Source of the DNA: Promethearchaeota archaeon Loki_b32
GTDB lineage: Archaea; Asgardarchaeota; Lokiarchaeia; Sigyniarchaeales; SOKP01
NCBI GenBank assembly: GCA_005223125.1
Contig: NJBH01000007.1
Span: forward strand, 64,001 to 128,000
Length of the DNA stretch: 64,000 nucleotides
Direction: 5' to 3'
Shown here: positions 26,418 through 26,542 of the stretch, one piece after another
How positions within the stretch are numbered: position 1 is the first letter of the stretch
Layout of the letters: the number at the start of each line of letters is the position of its first letter
Translations under genes and position numbers: made by a program
Notes under the pieces: generated by a model
Told to the model about the DNA's origin: nothing
Seen by the model: the letters and a program-made list of their open reading frames with translations, nothing else
Databases searched by the model: none

Positions 26418-26542
26418 TTCGTGTAGAGTAAGATTACACTGCTTTAATTTCACATCTAGAAAGGGATTCACTACTTTTGGTTTACTCTCATTGATGCATT
26501 TCTTCAGTGTTCTAATTTACATTAGATTTATCCTTACTCCAT
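26418..26542 (-). other. 125-nt BHB intron in 23S helix 93 (after ~G2599)
   Basis: CGUG-AG|A / CACG-AA|A; removal restores GUCGUGAGACAGGUC. Confidence 0.9.

Follow-up and report, generated by a model that had tools for sequence, protein, structure and literature searches.

Introns with bulge-helix-bulge (BHB) junctions interrupt conserved positions of the ribosomal RNA (rRNA) genes of Thermoproteales and Desulfurococcales, where they share a common junction core, follow the EndA/RtcB pathway and are patchily present, alleles with a LAGLIDADG gene and alleles lacking an open reading frame (ORF) being found at one and the same site (PMC4496867). Excised archaeal BHB introns circularise (PMC4496867, PMC4238349). 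They are described as passive substrates, in which the junction alone matters. The junction core, the conserved position, the two kinds of allele, the patchy presence and, by prediction, the EndA/RtcB pathway recur at a locus within a 64,000-nucleotide stretch (positions 64,001 to 128,000 of contig NJBH01000007.1; hereafter the window) of the lokiarchaeial genome Promethearchaeota archaeon Loki_b32, whose 23S rRNA gene is interrupted within its catalytic (peptidyl-transferase) centre, after G2599 (E. coli numbering), by a 125-nt, ORF-less BHB-type intron (26418–26542, minus strand). Taken as a whole, this element is likely to be an enzyme-spliced archaeal rRNA intron that arose by ORF loss and carries an internal loop that holds its exons. 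This exon-complementary loop, and the free-standing endonuclease genes found in related genomes, both lie beyond what an earlier note on this DNA had read from the sequence.

Against the Rfam model, part of the tip of helix 93 (H93) stays unaligned, and alignment to E. coli rrlB places the insertion point after G2599, three bases before A2602. Three 23S genes of the same genus were compared, and relative to the two that are empty at this site the window gene has exactly 125 extra bases. The insert has a GC content of 32% against about 50% in the rRNA; five of its six frames contain stops and the sixth, open over 41 codons, is of no significance. The alignment, the relatives, the composition and the frames thus bear out the low-GC, ORF-less insert in H93 announced by the earlier note. 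Folding yields a z-score of −3.5 with exon flanks and of −3.2 for the insert alone, and none of 200 shuffles folds equally well.

In the predicted fold (minus strand throughout), the exon strand CGUG (C2594–G2597; 26545–26548) pairs with CACG at the 3′ end of the intron (26420–26423), and this 4-bp central helix is flanked by a 5′ bulge AG^A (26542–26544) and a 3′ bulge AA^A (26417–26419), as had been claimed. The terminal stem (26532–26541 with 26424–26433) is also present, although it extends to 10 bp with one G-U pair instead of the 9 bp proposed, and a short side hairpin (26511–26526) lies where relatives hold a LAGLIDADG ORF. Cuts predicted after the second base of each bulge, between 26543 and 26542 and between 26418 and 26417, yield the exact empty allele of the same-genus genomes. 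On the exon side, the pair beside the 3′ bulge is a U2593/C2601 mismatch in all 19 introns tabulated, and because of it the window motif is classed, from its predicted fold, as the relaxed HBh′ type and not the full hBHBh′ type. The exon motif at the site is split by the insert as the earlier note stated, but it is not strictly invariant, since several relatives have A-U in place of U2593-A2600. Four sequencing runs, one of them of RNA, contain 65–72% of the sampled words, 58% of which are exon-only words; the difference is within sampling noise, and the runs were not used as evidence.

The host genome encodes the enzymes that such a motif would call for, namely two EndA subunits, alpha and beta, and RtcB. 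Catalytic Tyr, His and Lys are all present in the alpha subunit, whose alignment runs through the loop region of Aeropyrum EndA (L1-type loop); the beta subunit lacks the catalytic His. Asgard EndA is reported to be an (αβ)2 enzyme with an L1 loop, and enzymes of this type to cut relaxed motifs (PMC5829648).

A survey of the site brought together 23 distinct introns including the window copy, 97–810 nt long and all in Asgard-type 23S genes, two pairs of them being near-duplicates (loci are cited below by our own L numbers). A 4/4 central helix and a pair of 3-nt bulges occur in all of them, and in L120 exon and intron have changed jointly to UGUG/CGCA, a compensatory change of the central helix. 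In 185,579 species genomes, a pattern scan for exon-1 motifs whose next base is non-canonical yielded nine matches, of which seven are inserts at the site (six in Asgard genomes of Promethearchaeota, Hermodarchaeota and Borrarchaeum, one in an archaeon of the host's family) and two are unrelated; the scan required the exact exon-1 motif, so that inserts with C as second base were missed. Further alleles came from look-ups of endonuclease homologs and from a metagenome scan for the 3′ junction, which required CACG and consensus exon 2 and returned 11 true matches, 2 empty variant alleles and 25 chance matches. The restriction to Asgard archaea means that these pattern-based genome and metagenome scans found only Asgard. 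Among 400 genomes drawn from the phylum, the intron is present in 9 and the site is empty in 80 others; the remaining genomes mostly gave no match, a gap probably due to the frequent failure of rRNA genes to assemble. The host tree is short and poorly resolved, and gains and losses cannot be dated from it.

An intact LAGLIDADG ORF is present in six alleles (L045, L055, L072, L084, L127 and L135), encoding a two-motif protein of about 210 amino acids, and is decayed in one further allele; no endonuclease ORF was found in the window intron. The 3′ 85 nt of the latter align to the 3′ end of the 777-nt intron L045, from a genome of the same genus (Promethearchaeota archaeon LW40_87), with 54/74 identities and a score of 65 (best shuffle 26), and the 16-nt side hairpin occupies the stretch that holds the ORF in L045. 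These two features identify the window intron, by sequence comparison, as a deletion derivative of a LAGLIDADG-type intron, the ‘remnant' class of PMC4496867. The exact restoration of the empty allele, the 22 other introns at the same site, the compensatory change of the central helix, the endonuclease-bearing alleles and the presence of EndA and RtcB together uphold the proposed identity as a BHB intron, and the survey that had been suggested, homing-endonuclease alleles included, did uncover same-site introns. On these grounds the intron is very probably spliced. We strongly infer that splicing is required for a functional rRNA, since genome BLAST finds a single archaeal 23S copy in the assembly.

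Intron interiors are mostly unalignable between lineages, yet an apical loop of 17–23 nt is kept in all 23. It begins with UAAACC(C) and ends with GAAUCC, the reverse complements of 2581–2587 and 2607–2612, which are the strands entering and leaving H93 at its base. In the window, motif A (UAAACC, complementary to exon 2582–2587) lies at 26479–26484 and motif B (GAAUCC, complementary to 2607–2612) at 26464–26469, both assessed by shuffle test and covariation; their targets, located by position-wise pairing and the rrlB alignment, are 26555–26561 in exon 1 (2581–2587, 5′ of the H93 base) and 26405–26410 in exon 2 (2607–2612, 3′ of the H93 base), all on the minus strand. The loop of the window copy matches its exons at 12/13 positions, which is equalled by 1/200 dinucleotide shuffles, and the complementarity reaches p<=0.035 in 16/19 introns tested. 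A2587 faces U in 23/23 introns, and G2607, G2608 and A2609 are paired in 23/23. U2586 pairs with A in 21/21, and both hosts with C2586 have G in the intron (C2586-G, 2/2); likewise U2610 pairs with A in 22/22, and the single C2610 host, a Hodarchaeota contig (L119), has G in the intron (C2610-G, 1/1). The pairing reaches U2580 in 18/21 and U2613 in 15/21 and is at chance level beyond. The stem that closes the loop varies freely in sequence, with 90.5% of cells paired and 35 two-sided changes, a level attained by 0/500 shuffles and compared with 52–59% in slid controls, and its last pair adjoins both motifs in 21/21.

With this order of motifs, the intron stem, helix A, H93 and helix B would close a four-way junction without linkers. 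H93 is the sole bipartite target of this kind in the spliced 23S rRNA, against a genome background of 0.01 per 3.3 kb. A covariance model run over 151 genomes found no free-standing copy of the loop; it ranked five introns first, followed by nine scattered weak matches, seven of them inside long ORFs and none near rRNA. Considering complementarity and covariation together, the pairing between loop and exons is highly likely to be real. As a separate observation, six alleles (L041, L045, L055, L084, L127 and L135) contain, some 20–30 nt before the intron end, a second motif with CACG that is complementary to the H93 tip and is absent from the window copy.

These data suggest the following course of events. 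In the precursor of 23S rRNA, the intron ends would pair with each other and with C2594–G2597, giving a relaxed BHB that the host (αβ)2 EndA would cut after the second base of each bulge; RtcB would then ligate G2599 to A2600, restoring H93 beside A2602, and the intron would probably be released as a circle. The element itself would have originated when a homing intron that occupied this site and carried a LAGLIDADG gene lost its ORF. Its apical loop would pair with the exon strands flanking the base of H93 to form the four-way junction, the most likely effect of which would be to bring or hold the exons together, either during folding or between cutting and ligation. The exons would need holding because the exon–exon helix is short and interrupted here; computed duplex energies are −5.2 kcal/mol for this helix, −4.0 kcal/mol for helix A and −6.0 kcal/mol for helix B. 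That the purpose of the loop is to aid splicing or ligation is the assignment that we favour, by a modest degree.

Several points weigh against this interpretation. Both splicing and the junction are predicted from sequence. The covariation comes from three alleles, and alleles of kin are not independent; the tree separates the two C2586 hosts with weak support and so leaves their independence unproven. L055 and L076 pair motif A only via a bulge or a mismatch. The loop lies 27–49 predicted pairs from the BHB, at least 27 even in the 97-nt allele, and stem lengths are compatible with simple folding back of the uncut precursor in the window, L041 and L120 and not in the others; the loop may therefore act after cleavage, or in trans by way of the excised circle. 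Both 30-nt inserts described below for the same 23S gene do without such a loop. As regards the requirement for splicing, a further rRNA copy, free of the intron, can stay hidden in a metagenome-assembled genome (MAG), and relatives have up to three.

A role in trans is unlikely, although it fares best among the alternatives: the excised circle, if stable, would bind around H93 of spliced or intron-free 23S rRNA as a guide RNA, either as an snR30-like folding chaperone for the peptidyl-transferase loop or in recognition for re-insertion by reverse splicing. The junction needs only the base of H93, which empty alleles also possess, and stem lengths misfit an in-cis fold-back in many alleles. 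Moreover, two short motifs gripping an rRNA stem-loop is the geometry of snR30 m1/m2 on 18S rRNA (PMC2664660), and the second CACG-type copy of several family members could pair with the H93 tip. However, the intron is missing from about 90% of relatives and the search of 151 genomes found no loop standing free, which argues that the host has no need of it; the endonuclease already accounts for spread, the window copy has no second CACG, and not even in group I introns has mobility by reverse splicing been proved directly (PMC3984707). If true, this possibility would mean that, among the closest prokaryotic relatives of eukaryotes, an intron removed by proteins brings its own device for exon recognition.

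It is decidedly improbable that the intron is spliced and that the loop is a protein-binding or internal element whose match to the exons is coincidental. The complementarity was noticed after the motif had been seen, 6–7-mers are short and the compensatory alleles number only three; against this, both motifs match the strands abutting H93 exactly and in the order that closes the junction without linkers, the intron follows each exon change, and bipartite targets are as rare as stated above. Still less probable is a bacterial-type intervening sequence or an expansion segment, retained or excised without ligation. Lokiarchaeia do have large expansion segments (PMC7594248), and splicing is itself deduced; but the site lies beside A2602, at the tip of H93; alleles are up to 810 nt long and some contain homing endonuclease genes; all have the 4-bp helix and the 3-nt bulges by which an EndA substrate is defined; and cutting as predicted recreates the empty allele exactly. 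That the insert reflects faulty assembly or binning, or a second rRNA copy that is dead, can be dismissed with near certainty. The bin is a MAG whose contamination amounts to 4.6% and includes a bacterial 23S on contig C68, but homologous inserts occur at the same base in many independent assemblies; the conserved motifs of the gene are intact, it has a long processing stem, and its neighbours, on a contig of at least 128 kb, are single protein genes.

Other identities were rejected. A group I intron would need U before the 5′ site and a terminal G, and the insert follows G2599 and ends in A; at E<=10, Rfam returned no intron match and only three sub-threshold snoRNA matches on the intron. An H/ACA or atypical guide is contradicted by the targets, which are 19 nt apart with H93 between them and do not flank a contiguous U-N dinucleotide (definition in PMC11077068); judged from the alignment only, there is also no K-turn, the stem beside the loop being Watson-Crick/G-U with no conserved tandem G-A. 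A box C/D guide was discarded as the alignment has no conserved boxes and the best Rfam C/D match scores 18.8 bits against a cut-off of 70. A DNA target mimic and a simple inverted duplication are both incompatible with the motif order.

The preferred reading, a homing intron that lost its ORF, is accompanied in relatives by free-standing homologs of the endonuclease, located 0.5–1 kb after the start of exon 2, directly behind the 23S gene. The free-standing gene is intact in L038, L041, L119, L120 and L124, all of which have ORF-less 2599 introns, and is a fragment in L053. Free-standing LAGLIDADG homologs downstream of 23S are also seen in L122, L123 and L134, and in L123 a short stretch that precedes the gene recurs after it. 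In the 400-genome draw, the endonuclease protein occurs in 3/9 intron-bearing and 0/80 empty genomes (Fisher p=0.0007, a value overstated by kinship), and in a fourth genome it is encoded on a short contig that lacks the site. The exception is L122, where an empty site lies beside an endonuclease gene; its protein has Glu for a conserved Gly in the second motif and may, on that substitution, be inactive. The arrangement of a free-standing gene with an ORF-less intron resembles, by analogy, collaborative homing in phages (PMC3984707). No endonuclease homolog was found in the host genome with this query, and for this reason the window intron can probably move only with help in trans. In L127, a distant second LAGLIDADG gene (28% identity) lies further upstream in the same 23S gene (1674–2243) and marks another homing intron.

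The window 23S gene has two further inserts. At 26609–26638 (minus strand), the tip of H91 contains 30 extra nucleotides with a helix GCAC/GCGC (one A-C mismatch) and two AUA-type bulges; the helix is perfect in L044 and L084, the same loop is found in L041 and L046, and inserts of 28–60 nt are present in every same-genus gene read. A reading as an expansion segment was dropped, as canonical cuts give the exact empty allele of L127, and from its sequence this insert is probably another BHB mini-intron, almost fixed in the genus. At 27238–27267 (minus strand), a probable 30-nt BHB mini-intron follows position 1927; its removal restores the sequence of L152 and L153, and a pattern search did not find it in 40 relatives. 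The gene would accordingly have three introns, a probable count. Elsewhere, L039, L053, L057 and L077, with 23S genes of the Borrarchaeum type, have a 25–35-nt insert at about 2566–2570, between H92 and the 2581 strand, which is possibly another mini-intron. The Hodarchaeota 23S fragment L119 (1–1084) has other long inserts besides its 213-nt 2599 intron, its 1084 nt extending over 380 model positions.

The host gene (25955–29418, minus strand; Rfam RF02540 archaeal LSU rRNA, 2480 bits) stands alone, with a DUF72 gene on one side and a large UPF0182-like gene on the other; neither a 16S nor a 5S match was obtained within window positions 18000–32000, and no tRNA was called in the window. Its leader and trailer (25830–25975 and 29400–29560) pair over more than 100 nt, with a predicted energy of −106.5 kcal/mol, and its ES39 region (near 26142) is 58–67 nt shorter than in three same-genus genes. 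The second 23S match of the genome BLAST is the bacterial gene on contig C68 (L035, 1164–4001), a 23S and 5S with a group I intron that is probably contamination.

The site extends rRNA homing introns to Asgard archaea and displays all stages in one place: endonuclease-bearing, decaying and ORF-less introns, and ORF-less introns whose endonuclease gene has moved to a place behind the rRNA gene. About 1 in 10 surveyed Asgard 23S genes is interrupted at this conserved position, which is relevant to annotation and primer design. An internal loop kept across several Asgard classes and co-varying with both exons suggests how such an intron survives where the exon helix is too weak to keep hold of the cut ends. 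The nearest catalogued intron sites we take to be 2593, 2596, 2598 and 2601. Our literature search, which did not cover the main survey of 23S intron sites, returned no description of a 2599 intron, of a BHB intron in Asgard rRNA or of an exon-matching internal loop, and the intron is not described in the text of Penev 2020, Wu 2022, Tamarit 2022 or Nawrocki 2018. The earlier remark that such introns are little described in Lokiarchaeia agrees with these searches, and the lokiarchaeial host that it presumes is borne out by the genus shared with the L045 genome.

Ribozyme introns pair intron sequence with both exons, through the P1/P10 guide in group I and EBS/IBS in group II. Here, in contrast, the pairings lie 8–19 nt from the splice sites, Rfam detects no ribozyme core and a protein would make the cuts. 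In the BHB introns of Thermoproteales and Desulfurococcales conservation is described only in the vicinity of the junctions (PMC4496867), whereas the Asgard introns have a co-varying internal loop. Collaborative homing in phages (PMC3984707) shares an ORF-less intron at the presumed target and an endonuclease gene nearby outside it; it differs in that the present introns are of the BHB type in archaeal chromosomal rRNA, that the same protein family is also encoded inside introns and that no homolog of the gene was found in the host genome with the query used. The closest parallel to the loop is snR30/U17, whose m1 and m2 form two 6-bp helices around an 18S stem-loop (rm1/rm2) (PMC2664660): in both cases two helices grip, or here would grip, rRNA motifs that a stem-loop draws together, and compensatory changes occur, the role of snR30/U17 being in processing and not in modification. 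As snR30/U17 is an essential, trans-acting eukaryotic H/ACA ribonucleoprotein and the element described here is an optional intron with no ACA box that matches its own host site, the likeness is one of analogy and not of homology.
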